Both the position numbers and the translations under genes were made by a program. From NCBI GenBank assembly GCA_905235625.1, contig CAJOLX010000001.1, positions 38,587-102,586 of the forward strand: 64,000 bases of DNA, read 5' to 3'. The DNA comes from an uncultured Clostridia bacterium (GTDB lineage: Bacteria; Bacillota; Clostridia; Oscillospirales; Acutalibacteraceae). Positions 10,817-19,931 of the stretch are shown here, piece by piece. The stretch's first letter is position 1, and the number at the start of each line of letters is the position of its first letter. A model generated the notes under the pieces. That model did not search any database, was not told the DNA's origin, and saw nothing but the letters and a program-made list of their open reading frames with translations.

Positions 10817-10845
10817 TTGACATACACTATATGTTGTGGTATCAT
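10817..10845 (+). promoter_or_regulatory. nrdG promoter with an embedded NrdR box
   Basis: TTGACA (10817-10822), 17 nt, TATCAT (10840-10845). The spacer contains ACACTATATGTTGTGG (10824-10839), 14/16 to the NrdR consensus acaCwAtATaTwGtgt. A weak second box at 10856-10871 sits 32 bp away centre to centre. Confidence 0.7.
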
Positions 10846-10883: not shown

Positions 10884-11576
10884 ATGAACATTCAGGGTCT
10901 ACAAAAGCTGACTCTTTTGGATTTTCCCGGCAAAATGGCATGCACGGTGTTCACCGCAGGGTGCAATCTGCGCTGCCCGTTTTGCCACAATTCACCTCTG
11001 GTGATAAACCCTCCGAAAGAGAGCGCTTATTCCGTTGAGGATATAATTGATTTTATCGAAAGCAGGCGCGGCAGGCTTGACGGCGTTGCGATAACGGGCG
11101 GCGAGCCGCTCATGCAGCCGGATATCGAAGATTTTATCGCCGAGATAAAGGGCAGAGGCTTTGCCGTGAAGCTCGACACAAACGGAACCTATCCCGACAA
11201 GCTCAAAAGTCTGGTTGAAAAAGGGCTTCTCGATTACGTCGCAATGGACGTGAAATCCGGCGAAAAAGGCTATCCGCAGTGCGTCGGAATAGGCAATTAC
11301 GATTTGACGAAGGTAAACGAGAGCATAGATTACCTTATGCAGGGCAAGGTCGATTACGAATTCAGAACCACCGTCGCAAAAGGTCTTCACACCCCCGAGG
11401 ATATTGAGCAGCTCGGTCAGAGGCTCAAGGGAGCCCGCCGCCACTATCTGCAGGCTTTCAAGGATTCGGGCGAGCTCATAGGCTTCGGCATGGAAGCGTT
11501 TTCCAAAGAAGAAATGTATGAGCTGCTCAATATAATGAAAAAATACGTGCCCGAGTGCGGCGTGAGGGGAGTATAA
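10884..11576 (+). CDS. nrdG: anaerobic ribonucleoside-triphosphate reductase activating protein (radical SAM)
   Basis: 230 aa; CNLRCPFCHN CxxxCxxC cluster motif near the N-terminus; adjacent to nrdD. Confidence 0.9.
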   Translation: MNIQGLQKLTLLDFPGKMACTVFTAGCNLRCPFCHNSPLVINPPKESAYSVEDIIDFIESRRGRLDGVAITGGEPLMQPDIEDFIAEIKGRGFAVKLDTNGTYPDKLKSLVEKGLLDYVAMDVKSGEKGYPQCVGIGNYDLTKVNESIDYLMQGKVDYEFRTTVAKGLHTPEDIEQLGQRLKGARRHYLQAFKDSGELIGFGMEAFSKEEMYELLNIMKKYVPECGVRGV

Positions 11577-11585
11577 TTCCTTCAA

Positions 11586-11601
11586 TCACCACATATTGTG
11601 C
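11586..11601 (+). promoter_or_regulatory. NrdR box (distal) upstream of nrdD
   Basis: TCACCACATATTGTGC, about 12/16 to the NrdR consensus. Confidence 0.5.
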
Positions 11602-11636: not shown

Positions 11637-11688
11637 TCACAATATCTTGTGATTTGCTATTGACAGTGCCACCACATTTTGATATTAT
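11637..11688 (+). promoter_or_regulatory. nrdD promoter region with NrdR boxes
   Basis: TCACAATATCTTGTGA (11637-11652, 13/16). TTGACA (11660-11665), 17 nt, TATTAT (11683-11688). A weak box CCACCACATTTTGATA (11669-11684) sits 32 bp from the strong box, inside the promoter spacer. Confidence 0.65.
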
Positions 11689-11724: not shown

Positions 11725-14100
11725 ATGTATCAAGTAAAAAAGAGAGACGGAAGCATAGCCGAATTTAACGTTTCCAAAATTTCACAGGCCATCACCAAGG
11801 CTTTTGACGCTCAGGAAAAGCAGTACGTTCCCTCCACCATTGACTTTCTCGCTCTCAAAGTAACCGCAGATTTCGAGCCCAAAATCAAAGACGGATATAT
11901 TTCCGTTGAGGATATTCAGGACAGTGTTGAGGAAGTGCTCAGCCAGGCGGGCTACGCCGACGTCGCAAAGTGCTACATCCTTTACAGACGCCAGAGAGAG
12001 AAGCTGCGCAATCTTAAATCCACCATTCTCGACTATAAAGAGCTCGTTAACAGCTACGTTAACGTTACCGACTGGAGAGTTAAAGAAAACTCCACGGTCA
12101 CTTATTCCGTCGGCGGTCTTATTCTTTCAAACTCCGGCGCAATTACCGCTAACTACTGGCTCAGCGAGATTTATGACGATGAGATAGCAAACGCTCATAA
12201 AAACGCCGATATCCACCTGCACGACCTTTCAATGCTCACCGGCTACTGCGCCGGCTGGTCGCTCAAGCAGCTTATCCAGGAAGGCCTCGGCGGAGTTACG
12301 GGCAAAATCACTTCCGCTCCGGCGAAGCATCTTGCCACTCTCTGCAACCAGATGGTCAACTTCCTCGGCATTATGCAAAATGAGTGGGCGGGCGCTCAGG
12401 CGTTTTCATCCTTCGACACCTATCTTGCTCCTTTCGTAAAGTCCGACAATCTCAACTACGACGAGGTTAAAAAGTGCATCGAGTCCTTTATTTACGGCGT
12501 AAACACTCCGTCAAGATGGGGCACTCAGGCTCCGTTCTCAAACATCACCCTTGACTGGACCGTTCCCGCCGACCTTGCCGAGCAGAACTGCATAGTGGGC
12601 GGCAAGGAAATGCCCTTTAAATATAAGGACTGCAAAAAAGAGATGGATATGATAAACAAGGCGTTTATCGAGATTATGATTGAAGGCGACGCCAACGGCA
12701 GAGGCTTCCAGTATCCCATCCCCACATACTCAATCACCAAGGATTTTGACTGGTCCGAAACGGAAAACAACCGTTTGCTGTTTGAAATGACCTCAAAATA
12801 CGGCACTCCCTACTTCTCAAACTACGTTAACAGCGATATGGAGCCCAGCGACATTCGTTCAATGTGCTGCCGCCTTCGTCTTGACCTGAGAGAGCTGCGC
12901 AAAAAGAGCGGCGGCTTCTTCGGCTCCGGCGAAAGCACCGGCTCCGTGGGCGTTGTTACGATAAATATGCCCAGAATAGCTTATCTTGCCGAGGACGAGG
13001 CGGATTTCTACAAGAGACTCGACAAGATGATGGATATTTCCGCGCGTTCTCTTTCGGTTAAGAGAAAGATAATCACCAAGCTCCTTGACGAAGGTCTTTA
13101 TCCCTACACGAAGCGTTATCTCGGCACGTTTGAAAATCACTTCTCAACCATCGGCCTTGTCGGCATGAACGAAGTGGGTCTCAACGCGAAGTGGATCAGA
13201 GCCGATATGACGAGCAAGAAGTGCCAGGATTTCACCAAGGACGTGCTCAACCACATGAGAGAGCGTCTGAGCGACTATCAGGAGCAGTACGGCGACCTTT
13301 ACAACCTTGAGGCAACTCCCGCGGAGTCCTCCTCTTACAGGCTCGCGAAGCACGACGTGAAGAGGTATCCCGGCATAATCACCGCCTCCAAAGAGACTCC
13401 CTACTACACCAATTCCTCTCATCTGCCCGTCGGCTACACCGACGACGTTTTCTCGGCGCTCGACATTCAGGATGAGCTTCAAACTCTTTATACCTCCGGC
13501 ACCGTCTTCCACGCCTTCCTCGGCGAGAAGCTCCCCGATTGGAGAGCCGCAGCCGACCTCGTCAGAAAGATTGCCGAGAATTATCGCCTGCCTTACTACA
13601 CTCTTTCTCCCACTTATTCCGTTTGCCGCAATCACGGCTACATCCAGGGTGAGGAATACGTTTGCCCCGACTGCCACGAAGCGACAGAGGTTTATTCGAG
13701 AATAACCGGTTACTACCGTCCCGTTCAAAACTGGAACGAAGGCAAAACGCAGGAATACAAAGACCGCAAGGTTTATGACATCGCTCATTCCGAGCTTCAC
13801 GCTCACGCGCCCTCCTGCGGCTGCTGCTGCGAGGACCACACCGCGAACGCCGCCGTTCTGCCCGACGGAGCTTACCTCTTCAAAACTCCCACTTGCCCCA
13901 AGTGCAAGGTAGCCATACCCAAGCTCAGGGAAGCGGGAATAGAATTCAACGAGATCAACGCTTATGAAAACGAGGCTCTCGCAATAGCTCTCAACATAAG
14001 AACCGCTCCCACGCTTGTAATTGTGGACGACGGCAATATCGAGATTTATTCCGACCTCGCCGCCATTCTCGAATTCATCGAAACCGTAAAGAAGGCATAA
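11725..14100 (+). CDS. nrdD: anaerobic (class III) ribonucleoside-triphosphate reductase with N-terminal ATP-cone and an extra C-terminal CxxC redoxin-like domain
   Basis: 791 aa; ATP-cone start MYQVKKRDGSIAEFNVSKI; ..SMCCRLRLD..GSVGVVTINMPRIAY..; Zn site CPDC; glycyl-radical motif SRITGYYRPV (13699-13725); then about 105 extra aa with CGCCC and TCPKC (13894-13905). Confidence 0.92.
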   Translation: MYQVKKRDGSIAEFNVSKISQAITKAFDAQEKQYVPSTIDFLALKVTADFEPKIKDGYISVEDIQDSVEEVLSQAGYADVAKCYILYRRQREKLRNLKSTILDYKELVNSYVNVTDWRVKENSTVTYSVGGLILSNSGAITANYWLSEIYDDEIANAHKNADIHLHDLSMLTGYCAGWSLKQLIQEGLGGVTGKITSAPAKHLATLCNQMVNFLGIMQNEWAGAQAFSSFDTYLAPFVKSDNLNYDEVKKCIESFIYGVNTPSRWGTQAPFSNITLDWTVPADLAEQNCIVGGKEMPFKYKDCKKEMDMINKAFIEIMIEGDANGRGFQYPIPTYSITKDFDWSETENNRLLFEMTSKYGTPYFSNYVNSDMEPSDIRSMCCRLRLDLRELRKKSGGFFGSGESTGSVGVVTINMPRIAYLAEDEADFYKRLDKMMDISARSLSVKRKIITKLLDEGLYPYTKRYLGTFENHFSTIGLVGMNEVGLNAKWIRADMTSKKCQDFTKDVLNHMRERLSDYQEQYGDLYNLEATPAESSSYRLAKHDVKRYPGIITASKETPYYTNSSHLPVGYTDDVFSALDIQDELQTLYTSGTVFHAFLGEKLPDWRAAADLVRKIAENYRLPYYTLSPTYSVCRNHGYIQGEEYVCPDCHEATEVYSRITGYYRPVQNWNEGKTQEYKDRKVYDIAHSELHAHAPSCGCCCEDHTANAAVLPDGAYLFKTPTCPKCKVAIPKLREAGIEFNEINAYENEALAIALNIRTAPTLVIVDDGNIEIYSDLAAILEFIETVKKA

Positions 14101-14101
14101 A

Positions 14102-15004
14102 ATGTACGACATTATAATCGTGGGCTCGGGCCCCGCAGGGCTTACCGCGGCGCTTTATGCCCGCAGAGCCGATAAATCCGTGCTCGTGCTTGAGCAAAGC
14201 ACTCTGGGCGGTCAGGTCACCTTTTCTCCCCGCATCGAAAACTACCCCGGCTTTGTTTCAATGAGCGGCAATGAATTCATTGACAAGCTCGTAGACCAGG
14301 TTATCGAGCAGGGAGCGGATATAGACCTTAAAAAGGTTATCGGCATAAGGGATAACGGCGAAACCAAAACCGTTATCACCGAAAAGGGCGAGCTTGAAGC
14401 AAAGGCTGTCATAATTGCCACCGGCGTTAAGCACAGGCAGACGGGTCTTGAGCGTGAAAACGAGCTTGTAGGCCACGGCATTTCATACTGCGCCGTTTGC
14501 GACGGAGCTTTTTATAAGGGCAGAAAGGTTGCCGTGCTCGGCGGAGGCAACTCCGCTTTGCAGGAGGCCGTTTTGCTCAGCGACCTTGCGCAGGAAGTTT
14601 ACGTGCTTCAGGACCTTGATTTTCTCACGGGCGAGGCAAAGCTTGTTGAGAGCATATCCGAAAAAGCAAACGTTAAGGTTGTCACCGGCTGCAGGCTCAC
14701 GGGCCTTATCGGCGAAAACGCTCTCGAAGGCATAGAAATTGAGCGCGTTTCATCGGGCGAAAAGCAGAATATTGCCGTTGACGGTCTCTTCGTTGCCATC
14801 GGCCTTATTCCGGATAACGACAGCTTCAAAGCCGTTGCGGCGCTTGACGAATTCGGATATTTTGACAGCGACGAGAGCTGCCTTACCGACACTCCGGGCG
14901 TGTTTGTCGCAGGCGACTGCCGCAGCAAAAAAATAAGGCAGATAACTACAGCCTCGGCGGACGGAGCCGTAGCAGCCCTTGCGGCGTGCCGGTATACGGA
15001 TTGA
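14102..15004 (+). CDS. thioredoxin-disulfide reductase homologue (low-Mr TrxR fold) lacking the NADPH HRRxxxR motif
   Basis: 300 aa; GSGPAGLTAA FAD motif, redox CAVC (14489-14500), GGGNSALQEA; reads VLQDLDFLTGE where TrxB has IHRRDxFRA; starts 1 nt after the nrdD stop. Confidence 0.85.
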   Translation: MYDIIIVGSGPAGLTAALYARRADKSVLVLEQSTLGGQVTFSPRIENYPGFVSMSGNEFIDKLVDQVIEQGADIDLKKVIGIRDNGETKTVITEKGELEAKAVIIATGVKHRQTGLERENELVGHGISYCAVCDGAFYKGRKVAVLGGGNSALQEAVLLSDLAQEVYVLQDLDFLTGEAKLVESISEKANVKVVTGCRLTGLIGENALEGIEIERVSSGEKQNIAVDGLFVAIGLIPDNDSFKAVAALDEFGYFDSDESCLTDTPGVFVAGDCRSKKIRQITTASADGAVAALAACRYTD

Positions 15005-15009
15005 TTTTC

Positions 15010-15055
15010 AGCGGAAGCTGCGGATATTTTGATTTCCCGGCTTCCGCTTATTTTG
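15010..15055 (+). terminator. rho-independent terminator
   Basis: agcggaagc / gcttccgct stem followed by tatttt. Confidence 0.6.
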
Positions 15056-18017: not shown

Positions 18018-19931
18018 TCAATTATGTATCGTTCTTTGTGAAATACCTTCTATGGAAGTTATAGCCCAGTCGGTACCCTTTGATTCGATTATCGAGCCGC
18101 AATATTCGCACCTGCCTGCGGTGTTTATTTCGAGCGGTGCGCCGCAGTTCGGGCAAACCTCGGTGTGAAGGCCGCTGTCCGCTGTTTTAACGCCTCTCGG
18201 CCTTACGAGAGTCCATCTGTATTCCATCATCTTGATGTCTTTGGGATTTCCTCTTACAACCTCATCCGTTTTGTCGTCTATAACGTAATCTCTTATCGAG
18301 GCGGAAATGAGGACTTCTATAACGTCGTTTTCTCCGTTTACGTACCAGCCCGACGGAATAACGGAATTTACGTTAATATCCGTAACGATATTCGTCTGAC
18401 CGTCCGAGCGAAGGTGAGAGAGCTGGCGGTCGATCTGAGCGTAAAACGTGTCGGTCATATATCCTCTCAGAGGAGTGAGGTCTTTGTTTTGCCAGCCGTT
18501 TTGAAGCTCAACGTACATCTTCGCTATTCTTTCGGTGAATTCGTAAACGCTGAAGGTGTCGTCAACGCTCTGATATTCCGAAACGGGCACGAGATTTTGC
18601 TTTTGAGTTTTGGTAACCTGCACCGGTCTCGCAGCTGCCGACGGCCTGTCTTTCTTTATAAGAACCTTTCTGACAATGAGCAAAATGACGTCGAATATAA
18701 CTATGAGCGCGAGTATTCCCATCGCGATGCTGCCGTCTTCATTTTCAATGTCGGCATCCGTTAAAAGCAGCACCGCGTTAACCGCAGCTCCGGCAGGCGA
18801 ATAATACAGCGCTTTTCCGAGATAAGGCTCATCCGTCGGGTAGTCTTCGTAGCTGTATCTCTTCGGCTCCTCGGTCGTTACGTAATCGTCATCGTTACCG
18901 CTGTCGTAGCCGCCGTAGTCATATCCGCCGGAGTCGTAGCCGCCGCCGTAATCATATCCGCCGCCGTAGTCATAATCTCCGCCGTAATCGCCGAAATCCG
19001 CTTTTGAAATTATGCCGAGAGAGTTTACCGAAACAGCCAGAGCAAAGATAACGGCAAATGCTCTCAGGGCGCTCTTATTAAGCTTTTTCTTTTTAACGAG
19101 AATGACGATTGCAGTCGCCGCCGCCAAAACTATGCCGAGAAATATGCAGGCATTAAAAACGGAGTCAGGGTAGCCCATGAGCATATCGTAAAAATCGTTT
19201 ACGGTATTTTCTCCCTGCAAAACGTAAGCGTCTTCCGACTTTTCCGCTTTGCAGAAGGTCATATTTTCCTGCTCGCCGATGAACGTGTATTTCGCTCCGC
19301 TTTCGGGGTTTACCGCTTTGTAGGTTATTCTTACGTCGCCTATAGCGGGGTTTGCGGGGTCATCCGCAAAATACAGCCTTCCTTCATAAAGACGGGCGCC
19401 GATTGAGTCCGCCTGTTCCTTTGCGGCATTTATAATTTCGCTTTCGGATTCGCCGAATTTCGCAACGGTCAAAAGGCCGCTTTCGCCGATTTTCAGATTT
19501 CCGCCGTCCAAAACGGCGTCGTTAAAGAAGTAAGCGTTTTGATACTCTTTTGTAAACTCGGGGTTGGTGTATTCTTTTTCGCCGCCGATGTTCATTACCT
19601 GACTTGATCTGAATTCTTTATATACGGAGTAGCCGTCGGTAGTGTACTGATACACTTCAACTTCTCTTTTGAGCGCCATTGCGTTTGTCGAAATTCCCGT
19701 GAGCGGGTCGGTAACGGTGCCGAGCGCTTTCGGCGTGCCCACGGCAAAAACGGTTTTTCCGTCATTTTCGGCGCTCGTATTGCCGCCGATTATTTCGGTT
19801 ACTTCGGGCAGCTCGAAATTATCCGGATTGCCGCTTACCTTCGCGTTAAGCGCAACCAAAAAGAAAAACAGCGAGATTGAACAAAGTATTATGACCGATA
19901 CGGAAGATTTTTTGAGCAGCTTTTTCATCAT
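18018..19931 (-). CDS. membrane protein fusing a TMEM43/DUF1625-like N-terminal region, a Gly/Tyr/Asp repeat linker and a C-terminal Tim44-like domain with zinc ribbon
   Basis: 637 aa; EVEVYQY and GDVRITY motifs reminiscent of TMEM43 family; GDYGGDYDYGGGYDYGGGYDSGGYDYGGYDSG; Tim44-like ..FTERIAKMYVELQNGWQNKDLTPLRGYMTD..; CPNCG..CEYCG. Confidence 0.55.
   Translation of the reverse strand: MMKKLLKKSSVSVIILCSISLFFFLVALNAKVSGNPDNFELPEVTEIIGGNTSAENDGKTVFAVGTPKALGTVTDPLTGISTNAMALKREVEVYQYTTDGYSVYKEFRSSQVMNIGGEKEYTNPEFTKEYQNAYFFNDAVLDGGNLKIGESGLLTVAKFGESESEIINAAKEQADSIGARLYEGRLYFADDPANPAIGDVRITYKAVNPESGAKYTFIGEQENMTFCKAEKSEDAYVLQGENTVNDFYDMLMGYPDSVFNACIFLGIVLAAATAIVILVKKKKLNKSALRAFAVIFALAVSVNSLGIISKADFGDYGGDYDYGGGYDYGGGYDSGGYDYGGYDSGNDDDYVTTEEPKRYSYEDYPTDEPYLGKALYYSPAGAAVNAVLLLTDADIENEDGSIAMGILALIVIFDVILLIVRKVLIKKDRPSAAARPVQVTKTQKQNLVPVSEYQSVDDTFSVYEFTERIAKMYVELQNGWQNKDLTPLRGYMTDTFYAQIDRQLSHLRSDGQTNIVTDINVNSVIPSGWYVNGENDVIEVLISASIRDYVIDDKTDEVVRGNPKDIKMMEYRWTLVRPRGVKTADSGLHTEVCPNCGAPLEINTAGRCEYCGSIIESKGTDWAITSIEGISQRTIHN

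Follow-up and report, generated by a model that had tools for sequence, protein, structure and literature searches.

Class III ribonucleotide reductases (RNRs) of the NrdD2 type are defined by an extra Cys beside the thiyl Cys and by an active-site Glu (PMC4493059), and the NrdD of N. bacilliformis is thioredoxin-dependent (PMC4493059, PMC9669993). In T. maritima, NrdD2 occurs alongside a thioredoxin reductase (TR) preferring NADH (PMC5627308, PMC4493059; Yang and Ma, 2010, as cited in PMC5627308). Fusions of an RNR with a redoxin are represented by the Grx-ATP-cone-NrdB of Facklamia ignava, in which the fused redoxin is the RNR reductant, and by one Grx:NrdD catalogued in Lachnospiraceae bacterium TWA4 (PMC6187632). 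NrdH redoxins act with TrxR on class Ib RNRs and with a ferredoxin:disulfide reductase on methanogen NrdD3, the reductant of NrdD3 being a glutaredoxin-like NrdH (PMC9176816, Table 1, for NrdD3). Low-Mr TRs without the HRR motif include the NADH-preferring TmTR and DvTR3, the ferredoxin-dependent FFTR/DTR group, the F420-dependent DFTR, and TRi and TaTrxR, whose donors are unknown (PMC5627308, PMC10880999, PMC8154056).

The locus described here, from gut Clostridia, lies in a window of 64,000 nt (the whole stretch of DNA analysed) and is predicted to encode an O2-sensitive RNR with a thioredoxin-like domain fused to its C-terminus, followed by the gene of a dedicated TrxR-like flavoprotein. 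Hundreds of species carry this arrangement. The initial annotation, made from the letters of the DNA, did not know of its being characterized, and no characterizing paper was found in the literature that could be searched.

Layout and distribution of the locus

The ORFs stand in the order nrdG, nrdD, TrxR-like gene, with the following features.

10817-10845, + strand: promoter-like site of nrdG (TTGACA-17-TATCAT with TG)
10825-10838, + strand: NrdR-box-like palindrome CACTATATGTTGTG, overlapping the nrdG promoter-like site
10884-11576, + strand: nrdG, radical-SAM activase for class III RNR, 230 aa
11587-11688, + strand: nrdD control region (palindromes and promoter-like site)
11587-11600, 11638-11651 and 11670-11683, + strand: three NrdR-box-like palindromes of this region
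11660-11688, + strand: promoter-like site of nrdD (TTGACA-17-TATTAT with TG)
11725-14100, + strand: nrdD-redoxin fusion gene, 791 aa (PF03477, PF13597 and PF00462 matches)
14102-15004, + strand: low-molecular-weight TrxR-like flavoprotein, 300 aa (TIGR01292, PDB alignments, motifs)
15010-15055, + strand: intrinsic-terminator-like hairpin, then UUAUUUU, ending the nrdD-trxR transcription unit

NrdG is matched by TIGR02495 (NrdG2) with 204.5 bits (cut-off 131) and by Pfam Radical_SAM and Fer4_12. The palindromes upstream of nrdG and nrdD are taken by us to be NrdR boxes from their likeness to the known consensus, and the unit is apparently under NrdR control. As the initial annotation had stated, a single nucleotide separates the nrdD stop (TAA, 14098-14100) from the ATG of the TrxR-like gene (14102); the GAAGG Shine-Dalgarno of the latter is within the 3' end of nrdD, and translation of the two genes is probably coupled. 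The terminator-like hairpin (fold energy -23.5 kcal/mol, z = -3.4) was missed by a simple terminator scan because its loop exceeds 8 nt. No ferredoxin or flavodoxin gene was found within the operon.

At least 588 species-representative genomes contained the redoxin domain, and in all of the 80 best loci among them, each from a different species, it was located at the C-terminus of NrdD. A TrxR gene followed directly downstream in 75 of these 80 loci (gap 1-271 nt), while five loci, and in addition four IMG/VR contigs, showed the fusion without an adjacent TrxR. The hosts belong to the orders Oscillospirales and Lachnospirales. The presence of the architecture and its motifs in 80/80 related loci indicates more than chance, and the linkage in 75 of them makes a dedicated in-operon relay, from the TrxR-like protein through the redoxin to NrdD, the natural reading.

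The NrdD core and its fused redoxin domain

In order, the fusion protein has an ATP-cone (11731-12000), an NRDD core spanning residues 121-684, then the linker and, last, the domain with the thioredoxin fold.

12247-12249, + strand: Cys175, bottom-face active-site Cys, aligning with C125 of T. maritima NrdD
12862-12873, + strand: finger-loop MCCR (M380, C381, C382, R383), aligning with T. maritima SCCR (C329/C330)
13309-13311, + strand: Glu529, aligning with T. maritima E495, the NrdD2-defining active-site Glu
13624-13677, + strand: Zn-ribbon-like CxxH...CxxC of the glycyl-radical domain, CRNHGYIQGEEYVCPDCH (sequence reading)
13699-13725, + strand: glycyl-radical motif RITGYYRPV, with G662 at 13708-13710
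13777-13866, + strand: linker, residues 685-714, ~30 aa (AF2 low confidence)
13867-14097, + strand: C-terminal thioredoxin-fold redoxin domain, ~77 aa (beta-alpha-beta-alpha-beta-beta-alpha)
13894-13905, + strand: CPKC of the redoxin domain, preceded by AYLFKTPT
14005-14013, + strand: cis-Pro element APT of the redoxin domain (translation)

The best NCBIfam model was NF006126 (1133 bits, residues 1-686), and the protein is predicted to be a complete class III RNR, distant in sequence from T. maritima NrdD (139 bits). The CxxH...CxxC segment matches the C..H...CPVC segment of the latter in the alignment. Among the 79 relatives used for NrdD motifs, GYCAG at the Cys175 site was found in 63/63 that cover the position (the rest end at contig ends), SMCCRL in all 68 that span the finger loop, NLEAT at Glu529 in 71 of 72, and SRITGYYRP in 79/79. 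The finger loop of the window protein is a double-Cys motif with Met. The active-site subtype, which the initial annotation had left to be classified, reads as redoxin-dependent NrdD2 (C175, MCCR and E529, with the extra Cys and the Glu, and the finger-loop Met retained) and not as formate-only NrdD1.

The Pfam NRDD match stops at residue 684, which leaves a C-terminal extension of 107 aa. A thioredoxin fold had been suggested for it, and this was borne out: Pfam Glutaredoxin (PF00462) matches residues 718-766 with 27.9 bits (gathering cut-off 22.9), the AF2 model of the domain has a pLDDT of 85.3, and all 50 Foldseek matches listed against the PDB have the thioredoxin fold (mostly thioredoxins and PDI domains, probability 1.00), the top one being Trx as a chain in an RNR complex from B. 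subtilis. Profile matches are to PDO/'glutaredoxin-like' proteins (1j08, 1a8l), thioredoxins and NrdH, and the CxxC and APT are invariant among the relatives. By profile and model, therefore, NrdD ends in a true CxxC redoxin of the thioredoxin fold.

AF2 pLDDT is below 50 over residues 563-710. The linker holds a His/Cys-rich stretch, HAHAPSCGCCCEDH, and the CGCCC pointed out in the initial annotation is indeed present (13816-13830); however, the linkers of the relatives are 28 to 72 aa long with 0 to 4 Cys, and 19 of the 79 have no linker Cys, so that the cluster is no conserved part of the system. The full-length AF2 model of NrdD (pLDDT 52) is too low in confidence to judge whether the redoxin domain reaches the active site.

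The TrxR-like flavoprotein and its electron donor

14123-14140, + strand: GSGPAG (translation)
14489-14500, + strand: CAVC (translation)
14540-14557, + strand: GGGNSA (translation)
14609-14629, + strand: QDLDFLT, replacing HRRDxxR of NADPH-dependent TrxRs (translation)

The positions that the initial annotation had given for the NrdD and TrxR-like motifs all proved right on translation. So did its reading of QDLDFLT in place of HRRxxxR: in phmmer alignments with solved TrxRs, QDLDFLTG pairs exactly with HRRDHLKA (4zn0) and HRRDTLRA (7aaw). In the HRR-less proteins, Q, N/D, L and T stand at the sites of all four basic 2'-phosphate ligands; the residue after the Q is Asp in the window protein (Asp171, at the Arg176 position) and Asn in the majority of the homologues. 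The survey of co-occurrence that had been proposed agreed for the fusion with TrxR and, in 70 of the linked genes, for Q[ND]L..[FL]T at the HRR position, but a sister clade (n = 5) with the same synteny keeps HRRDSFR. Across ~45% sequence divergence, all NrdD-linked homologues in the tabulation have the GGGN[ST]A core intact; most read GGGNSALQEA, and GGGNSAL is nearly invariant. CA[VT]C occurs throughout, with CSVC at one locus. The Trx-binding sites read GxG and AF, against the canonical G[R/K]G and FF, so that docking would not be canonical.

The explanation that we prefer, and that we rate in its entirety as about an even call, is an NrdD2-type class III RNR carrying its own reductant in cis and served by a TrxR-like relay with NADH as the donor. 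Electrons would pass from the reduced pyridine nucleotide to the FAD of the TrxR-like protein, on to its CAVC disulfide, and then to the CPKC disulfide of the redoxin domain, tethered via the ~30-aa linker. The tethered redoxin would re-reduce the disulfide between C175 and the finger-loop Cys (C381/C382) once per turnover, with E529 as the proton source; the glycyl radical on NrdD would be generated by the nrdG product. From the observed domain identities, motifs, fold and synteny, and from their conservation, we infer which way the electrons run, that the tethered redoxin acts directly on the active site, and which donor is used.

As regards the donor, NADPH- and NADH-TRs both conserve the pyrophosphate (PP) motif, which is degenerate in TRs outside the NAD(P)H group (CpFTR, MjDFTR and TRi among them), and HRR is missing from NADH-TRs also (PMC5627308). 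The nearly invariant GGGNSAL, the lack of FFTR-like degeneration or tail, and a similarity to NTRs greater than that to FFTRs favour, without proving it, a change from NADPH to NADH as the most likely effect of losing the His/Arg/Arg/Arg of the 2'-phosphate site while the pyrophosphate loop is retained. Of the electron chain put forward in the initial annotation, the self-contained character is well supported by the 75/80 linkage and the NrdD2 site, while independence from pyridine nucleotides is disfavoured by the PP motif, the NTR-like scores and the missing tail; its NADH-specific alternative fares better, although the donor is beyond what sequence alone settles.

It should be noted that NADH Rossmann folds classically have a conserved Asp/Glu after beta-2, where the TrxR-like proteins have Q-N/D, which speaks against an NADH reading. 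Against the relay count the finger-loop Met, the non-canonical Trx-binding sites and the five loci whose fusion has no TrxR gene beside it.

The same relay might instead draw on ferredoxin or flavodoxin, as in clostridial FFTRs, through a pyridine-nucleotide-independent flavoprotein evolved independently from an NTR ancestor; we consider this reading, the one preferred in the initial annotation, unlikely. TRs that depend on ferredoxin or F420, or whose donor is unknown, are also marked by HRR loss (PMC5627308, PMC10880999), and non-NTR TrxBs, presumed FFTRs, are common in Clostridia (PMC10880999). The loss of all four 2'-phosphate ligands with conservation of the substitute motif, the NCBI name of the relatives ('FAD-dependent oxidoreductase' only) and the TIGR01292 score, which at 309 bits falls short of the 343 cut-off, are consistent with such a donor. 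The hosts are strict anaerobes of Oscillospirales and Lachnospirales, and in strict anaerobes low-potential ferredoxin is abundant. However, clostridial FFTRs are described as having neither GxGxxA nor HRRxxxR (PMC10880999), whereas here the GGGN[ST]A core is kept intact; phmmer scores were 132-118 bits with FFTRs (6gna, 6gnd, 6gnc) against 235-150 bits with NTR structures; the C-terminal aromatic tail, essential in cyanobacterial FFTR/DTR (PMC8154056), was looked for in the TrxR-like protein and not found; and the operon is devoid of a ferredoxin or flavodoxin gene. Together with HRRD in the sister clade, these points count against the FFTR-like reductase envisaged initially.

It is distinctly improbable that NrdD depends in practice on formate via the finger-loop Met, with the redoxin and the TrxR-like protein in another role, e.g. 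repair or protection of oxidized active-site, Zn-ribbon or linker Cys after O2, or redox regulation. MCCR does keep the Met tied to the thiosulfuranyl/formate mechanism, Met is found in 83% of double-Cys class III RNRs, where either reductant may serve (PMC9669993), and the five loci and four contigs with no neighbouring TrxR would fit. Nevertheless, the third Cys and the Glu, essential to formate-independent reduction (PMC9669993), are present in every relative covering them; the 75/80 linkage and translational coupling are expected of a stoichiometric catalytic partner; and operon-encoded or fused redoxins are known as RNR reductants (PMC6187632; PMC9176816, Table 1). Finally, it is very unlikely that the TrxR-like protein still works with NADPH, as a normal NADPH-thioredoxin reductase whose phosphate site is atypical, because, even if its best matches overall are NADPH-dependent TrxRs and its GGGNSA loop is intact, all four basic residues are gone, Asp171 is expected to repel the 2'-phosphate, and a substitution fixed in 70 species, with HRRD kept in the sister clade, points to a selected change of specificity and not to drift.

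Comparison with known systems

With the NrdD2 systems of N. bacilliformis and T. maritima, the locus shares a glycyl-radical NrdD together with an NrdG activase, the finger-loop extra Cys beside the thiyl Cys, the bottom-face Cys and the Glu (PMC4493059, PMC9669993), and a reduction that is expected to run over disulfides, with a protein of the thioredoxin family and a TrxR as partners. It differs in the redoxin being covalently attached to the NrdD C-terminus, in the dedicated TrxR-like gene next in the operon, in the reductase lacking HRRxxxR, and, from T. maritima, in the finger loop (MCCR, not SCCR).

The Grx-RNR fusions likewise have a CxxC redoxin domain on the RNR polypeptide, Grx-NrdB being its own reductant, and the TWA4 Grx:NrdD, catalogued without characterization, may be a comparable case (PMC6187632). 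However, the F. ignava fusion concerns a class I RNR, has its redoxin at the NrdB N-terminus and depends on glutathione, whereas that of the window is C-terminal on NrdD with a TrxR-like partner; and Grx:NrdD is one RefSeq entry, compared with at least 588 species-representative genomes for the window fusion. To our knowledge, Clostridia generally lack glutathione.

As in NrdH systems, the redoxin is small, Grx-like, RNR-dedicated and co-encoded, and would receive its electrons from a reductase, not from glutathione. Unlike the free NrdH, it is fused, and TIGR02194 (NrdH) gives only 12.6-15.8 bits (cut-off 85.75). The NrdH motifs CVQC and WSGFRP are absent, the active site of the fused domain being C-P-[KN]-C. 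In contrast to the NrdD3 system, the Glu missing from NrdD3 is present in the window NrdD, and a flavoprotein takes the place of the [4Fe-4S] FDR as reductase.

The TrxR-like protein has in common with HRR-less TRs the TrxR fold, the FAD motif, the CxxC and the loss of the HRRDxxR 2'-phosphate motif, and like NADH-TRs it keeps the pyrophosphate motif. Its Q[ND]L..[FL]TGE, however, matches none described in PMC5627308, PMC10880999 and PMC8154056 (e.g. TRi TQ/NGK). It differs from TR3 in having neither CxQ nor the His-for-Ser ahead of CxxC, from DTR in having no C-terminal tail, and from FFTRs in keeping GGGxxA; the family is a separate clade linked to NrdD, and its sister clade bears HRR.

Among the PDB entries closest in sequence to the redoxin domain is the C-terminal unit of Pyrococcus PDO (1j08, 1a8l), with TPTCPYC. 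The PDO proteins of Thermotoga and archaea are TrxR substrates; they are free two-unit proteins of ~226 aa, whereas the window has a single 77-aa unit carried on NrdD.

Gene organization and the class III reductase

The genes nrdG, nrdD-redoxin and trxR-like form one functional unit, in which a class III ribonucleotide reductase (NrdD) carries a redoxin domain at its C-terminus and is followed almost without a gap by the gene of a TrxR-like flavoprotein. This arrangement is real, its conservation is strong, and its mechanistic reading is coherent.

Features of the nrd locus (positions in the window)
10817-10845, plus strand: near-consensus promoter with extended -10, nrdG (promoter scan)
10825-10838, 11587-11600, 11638-11651 and 11670-11683: NrdR-box-like 14-nt palindromes of the form CAC(A/T)AT(A/C)T..T(T/G)GTG
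10884-11576, plus strand: nrdG, open reading frame
11660-11688, plus strand: near-consensus promoter with extended -10, nrdD (promoter scan)
11725-14100, plus strand: nrdD-redoxin fusion gene, open reading frame of 791 aa
14102-15004, plus strand: TrxR-like flavoprotein gene, open reading frame of 300 aa
15010-15055: terminator-like hairpin with UUAUUUU, 3' of the TrxR-like gene (-23.5 kcal/mol, z = -3.4)

The three open reading frames, together with all eight motifs that the initial annotation had read in them (RITGYYRPV, CGCCC, CPKC, APT, GSGPAG, CAVC, GGGNSA and QDLDFLT), translate exactly where it had placed them. Between the nrdD stop codon (TAA, 14098-14100) and the next ATG there is a single A, and the GAAGG ribosome-binding site of the flavoprotein gene falls within the 3' end of nrdD. 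The NrdR-box-like palindromes (CAC-A-TAT-T-GTG type), which resemble NrdR operator boxes, overlap or flank the promoters of both nrdG and nrdD, so that the two genes are probably each repressed by NrdR from separate promoters. With a loop of more than 8 nt, the hairpin escaped a simple terminator scan.

The surrounding genes bear no relation to the finding: upstream, on the minus strand, lie two MFS_2 sugar transporters, and downstream come genes for an FGGY kinase and a fucose-isomerase-like protein. No further TrxR or redoxin paralogue is present within the 64-kb window. Also unrelated is a 637-aa membrane protein encoded at 18018-19931 (minus strand), which is TMEM43-like in its N-terminal part, continues with a Gly/Tyr/Asp-rich repeat (GGDYDYGGGYDYGGGYDSGGYDYGG) and a Tim44-like domain, and has a zinc-ribbon-like C-terminal end (CxxC...CxxC).

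The nrdG product scores 204.5 bits against TIGR02495 (NrdG2, cut-off 131) and qualifies as the cognate radical-SAM activase. NrdD contains an ATP-cone (residues 3-92) and a complete NRDD core (PF13597, 629.8 bits over residues 121-684), and belongs to class III by its scores against TIGR02487 (501 bits, cut-off 326) and NF006126 (1133 bits, cut-off 548) and by its glycyl-radical motif RITGYYRPV (13699-13725). When it is aligned to T. maritima NrdD (4coi/4u3e), C175 corresponds to C125, the finger loop S-M-C381-C382-R to S-C329-C330-R, with the third Cys beside the thiyl-radical Cys present, and E529 to the active-site Glu E495.

According to the scheme of Wei et al., as summarized in PMC4493059, NrdD2 has the third Cys and the Glu, and in some members also a Met, NrdD3 lacks the Glu, and NrdD1 lacks both the third Cys and the Glu. 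Having the third Cys, the Glu and a finger-loop Met, the window NrdD is, as judged from its active-site residues, a member of the redoxin-dependent subtype NrdD2 that has retained the Met. Assignment to the formate-only subtype NrdD1 is ruled out by the double Cys (C381/C382, besides C175) and by E529; the Met common to NrdD1 is kept, and the formate-type NrdD of Prevotella copri (8p23) shows MGCR where the window NrdD has MCCR. The methanogen subtype NrdD3, which uses NrdH/FDR, has the third Cys but neither Glu nor Met and carries a QCCR/A motif (PMC4493059, PMC9669993); it is ruled out by the MCCR motif and, again, by E529.

The redoxin domain and its distribution

Residues 685-791 of NrdD comprise a linker of ~30 aa and a domain of ~77 aa. 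The domain matches the Pfam family Glutaredoxin (PF00462, gathering cut-off 22.9) with 27.9 bits within the whole protein and 29.6 bits when taken alone; in many relatives it lies below threshold in the precomputed Pfam annotation. The AF2 model of full-length NrdD had a mean pLDDT of 52 because the alignment was limited to 19 close homologues; its core is unusable, the linker has pLDDT <50, and only the C-terminal domain was confident. Re-predicted alone after this poor model, the domain reached a pLDDT of 85.3 and showed a beta-alpha-beta-alpha-beta-beta-alpha fold, with CPKC just ahead of helix 1 and APT just ahead of strand 3. In a Foldseek search of the PDB, all 50 matches listed had the thioredoxin fold (probability 1.00, TM 0.55-0.74), most of them being thioredoxins or PDI domains and the first the thioredoxin chain of a B. 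subtilis RNR complex. Profile match, predicted fold and structural matches thus agree on the thioredoxin fold that had been proposed for the NrdD extension.

Among solved structures, the domain profile matched the C-terminal unit of the Pyrococcus 'glutaredoxin-like' protein disulphide oxidoreductases (TPTCPYC), many thioredoxins, MJ0307 and NrdH. The cis-Pro loop reads T/Q-A-P-T, not TVP, no GG-x-dD motif could be seen by eye after the loop, and no NCBIfam equivalog, including those for Grx, came near its cut-off. An NrdH-redoxin was considered and rejected: TIGR02194 gave only 12.6-15.8 bits against a cut-off of 85.75, the active site is CPKC, not CVQC, and the WSGFRP-type motif of NrdH is absent. 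The domain is therefore a CxxC redoxin with a minimal thioredoxin fold; it is not a true NrdH, nor can it be shown to be a glutathione-dependent Grx. In role it is presumably NrdH-like, that is, dedicated to the RNR and reduced by a TrxR, yet it is no member of the NrdH family. The domain profile also matched four long proteins (P0256, P0315, P0333 and P0373, 671-1379 aa), in which this small CxxC domain is repeated 5-9 times in tandem.

The linker contains one conspicuous element:
13795-13836, plus strand: His/Cys-rich stretch HAHAPSCGCCCEDH, with the look of a metal site or thiol relay

Similar HxH...CxCC-like stretches occur in the closest relatives of the window NrdD. In 79 relatives the linker is 28-72 aa long and has no Cys (19 loci), one (20), two (20), three (17) or four (3), which indicates that CGCCC is a clade-specific and not a system-wide element. 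The 19 linkers devoid of Cys exclude an obligatory electron relay or metal site, but the His/Cys-rich linker may still count in the window's own clade.

As regards the size of the family, a word-indexed search with the 106-aa extension returned 11 matches, mostly fragments, and under-represents it, while a HMMER search of 50% representatives with the domain profile returned 2452, of which the best 150 were short proteins or fragments devoid of context. A full-length search showed that 789-792-aa NrdDs with the redoxin extension are very common in metagenomes, one NrdD with 86% identity being found on 561 contigs; a source was named in three rows among the matches listed, as a 'Clostridium sp.' or 'Clostridia bacterium' MAG. 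By domain alignment against one genome per GTDB species, the redoxin domain was confirmed in at least 588 species-representative genomes, mostly of uncultured Oscillospirales and Lachnospirales of animal guts. The locus counts that follow were obtained by ORF/BLAST analysis and rest on the best 80 of these at least 588 loci. They come from Acutalibacteraceae, Oscillospiraceae, Ruminococcaceae, Lachnospiraceae and Erysipelotrichaceae, mostly as gut or rumen MAGs, the cultured members being Copranaerobaculum intestinale and Lachnospiraceae bacterium FE2018.

The redoxin domain forms the C-terminus of the NrdD ORF in all 80 loci, two of which (L028 and L064) lie so close to a contig end that the redoxin part alone was matched. 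Where the upstream flank was sufficient, nrdG was found upstream in 55 of 57 loci; tblastn detected no nrdG in loci L063 and L066. A TrxR-like gene follows directly, after a gap of 1-271 nt, in 75 of the 80 loci, and 70 of these 75 homologues read Q-[ND]-L-x-x-[FL]-T-G-E at the HRR position. In locus L045 the TrxR-like gene is 2.4 kb away, and none was present within 6 kb in L046, L059, L066 and L074. Both cultured isolates belong to this last group (C. intestinale is L059, strain FE2018 is L066), and in C. intestinale a gene for a WCGPC thioredoxin lies ~5 kb downstream of the fusion.

The motifs GYCAG, SMCCRL and SRITGYYRP are present in every related NrdD that covers those positions, and NLEAT in all but one, which reads NPEAT, so that none of them lacks the Glu. 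Without exception, the redoxin motif is C-[PG]-[NK]-C and the cis-Pro element is A-P-T.

Related sequences were also found on IMG/VR contigs. Four of them (L084-L087) carry the NrdD-redoxin fusion with a core 77-79% identical, and no TrxR gene within their 4-kb flanks. At least two others (L089 and L090) encode the redoxin as a stand-alone protein, whose gene precedes a highly diverged nrdD (~25% identity) by ~0.7 kb; the same stand-alone redoxin is present in L088, where nothing matched nrdD. Such contigs may represent the pairing as carried by phages or prophages, or else host sequence wrongly binned as viral.

The flavoprotein and its putative electron donor

The flavoprotein is a low-Mr TrxR homologue, and its relatives bear the NCBI name 'FAD-dependent oxidoreductase'. 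It has the FAD motif GSGPAG, the redox motif CAVC and the pyrophosphate (PP) motif GGGNSA. Neither the FAD motif nor the GGGN[ST]A core changes among the linked homologues, most of which read GGGNSALQEA across ~45% sequence divergence, and the CxxC is CAVC or CATC (CSVC in one locus). When the protein is aligned by phmmer to thioredoxin reductases of solved structure, QDLDFLTG stands column for column opposite HRRDHLKA (4zn0) and HRRDTLRA (7aaw), confirming the replacement of HRRxxxR by QDLDFLT noted in the initial annotation: all four basic residues are lost, and the window protein has an Asp at the position of E. coli Arg176.

Five Oscillospiraceae loci (L056, L068, L070, L071 and L073) have instead HRRDSFRGE, in one case HRRAEFRGE. 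In a neighbour-joining tree, in which E. coli TrxB serves only as outgroup, these HRR proteins are the sister group of a single Q[ND]L clade. The NrdD-redoxin/TrxR module is therefore older than the change in the 2'-phosphate site, which was fixed once, and the two sister clades, in identical synteny, represent a natural experiment on the switching of TrxR coenzyme specificity.

The best PDB matches of the flavoprotein in phmmer are NADPH-TrxRs (235-150 bits); 158 bits were obtained for the Gloeobacter DTR 5j60, and 132-118 bits for the clostridial FFTRs 6gna, 6gnd and 6gnc. Among the weakest TrxR-type matches (112 bits) is 5nii, labelled 'Thioredoxin reductase', which we take to be DvTRi.

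NADPH-TRs (TR1) and NADH-TRs (TR3) share a highly conserved PP motif, GGGxxAxE, which is less conserved in ferredoxin- and F420-dependent enzymes and highly degenerate in TRi; HRR occurs in none of the enzymes with a donor other than NADPH, among them T. maritima TR and DvTR3, which prefer NADH (PMC5627308). The pattern of an NADH-preferring TR, i.e. PP motif kept and HRR absent (PMC5627308), is the one found in the sequence of the flavoprotein. An intact PP loop, the loss of the basic residues, the absence of a DTR tail and the similarity to NTRs best fit a dinucleotide site that refuses the 2'-phosphate, and NADH may thus be the donor, a reading to which we give roughly even confidence. Against it, the residues after strand beta-2 are Q-N in most members and not the textbook Asp/Glu, and several HRR-less TRs proved to be nucleotide-independent. 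It should be noted that the TR3-specific signatures, CxQ in place of GR/KG and His in place of Ser before CxxC (PMC5627308), are absent from the window flavoprotein, which reads GHG and ISY; its likeness to TR3/TmTR is therefore one of function, not of membership.

Reduction by ferredoxin/flavodoxin, or by another donor, appears rather unlikely, as FFTR, DTR and TRi are each set apart by their published defining motif. Clostridial FFTRs are defined by the lack of both GxGxxA and HRRxxxR (PMC10880999); the flavoprotein shares the absence of HRRxxxR, but the core GGGN[ST]A is intact in all the relatives tabulated, and its similarity to FFTRs is lower than to NTRs. In the cyanobacterial FFTR/DTR type, an aromatic residue of the C-terminal tail stacks on the FAD (PMC8154056); our protein has no such tail and stops 4-13 residues past its final core helix (...AACRYTD). 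In TRi, the NAD(P)H-independent enzyme of Desulfovibrio and Clostridia, TQ/NGK replaces HRRD and the PP motif is degenerate (PMC5627308), while the flavoprotein reads Q[ND]LD and its PP motif is intact.

A more far-reaching reading, doubtful when taken as a whole, is that the Q[ND]L flavoprotein would be an unrecognized, independently evolved TrxR-like class with the tethered redoxin as its sole client, that its donor would not be NADPH and possibly no pyridine nucleotide at all, e.g. reduced ferredoxin or flavodoxin, and that in some lineages the His/Cys-rich linker would provide a further relay or a metal site, by analogy with the C-terminal Cys tails and Zn finger of class I/II RNRs. If this were true, many Clostridia of gut and rumen would have their dNTP synthesis wired directly to the low-potential fermentative electron pool. 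Finally, NADPH is a most improbable donor on the evidence of the motifs: FAD, CxxC and GGGxxA motifs agree with the TrxB equivalog TIGR01292 (NADPH-TrxR), but the score of 309.1 bits is below the cut-off of 343.45, and the HRRDxxR motif for the 2'-phosphate is missing.

Whatever the donor, with NADH as the preferred candidate, electrons would pass from it to the FAD and the CAVC of the flavoprotein, then to the CPKC of the tethered redoxin and finally to the C175/C381-382 disulphide of NrdD, with E529 as the proton source, following the proposal for N. bacilliformis NrdD (PMC9669993). We consider such a dedicated disulphide relay likely, given the domain identity, the active-site type, and a very strong signal from gene fusion and gene neighbourhood. 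Of the self-contained electron chain originally proposed, pyridine-nucleotide-independent or NADH-specific, the path from flavoprotein through fused redoxin to NrdD is thus well supported by domain identity, active-site type and gene linkage, while a ferredoxin-type donor became the less likely on motif evidence.

At the docking positions of the flavoprotein (residues 122-126 and 134-138, 14465-14479 and 14501-14515), the NrdD-linked family has throughout G-x-G (x = E, A, S, N, H or K) and A-F, where the canonical Trx-docking residues of low-Mr TrxRs are G[R/K]G and FF. Speculatively, the tethered redoxin may dock on a surface that departs from the canonical one, in keeping with a specialized partner.

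Comparison with known systems

The recognized reductants of class III RNRs are formate, free thioredoxin with TrxR, and NrdH with FDR. A redoxin carried on NrdD, with a clade-specific reductase of rewired cofactor site in the same operon, represents a fourth packaging, for which the current annotation of the two genes reads only 'ribonucleoside triphosphate reductase' and 'FAD-dependent oxidoreductase'. Should the donor be NADH or ferredoxin and not NADPH, the system would show how NADPH-limited strict anaerobes pay for DNA precursors; in addition, the tethered redoxin would be useful for structural trapping of the NrdD-redoxin encounter complex.

The full-text literature searched yielded no account of an NrdD that bears a redoxin at its C-terminus and has an HRR-less TrxR as neighbour, although a passing mention in the primary NrdD2/NrdD3 papers is possible. 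MAGs are largely outside RefSeq, and most of the redoxin domains are under the Pfam threshold; this would explain why the size of the family went unnoticed in the available catalogue of fusions, which is based on RefSeq and Pfam gathering thresholds (PMC6187632). In that work, Grx-NrdB was characterized and a single Grx:NrdD fusion was listed only (WP_082039398.1 of Lachnospiraceae bacterium TWA4, RNRdb subclass NrdDd) (PMC6187632). Burnim et al., in treating RNR C-terminal extensions, give for class III only the glycyl-radical domain (PMC9669993).

Fusions of Grx to NrdB, operons with nrdH and the varied donors of TrxRs are precedents that lessen the surprise. The system is alike in function to the thioredoxin-type NrdD2 systems of N. 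bacilliformis and T. maritima, and alike in packaging to the RNR-redoxin fusions of Rozman Grinberg et al. (PMC6187632). It is not a categorically new system but a variant form of the redoxin-dependent class III RNR, in which fusion of the redoxin in cis is combined with a dedicated reductase whose cofactor site is altered.
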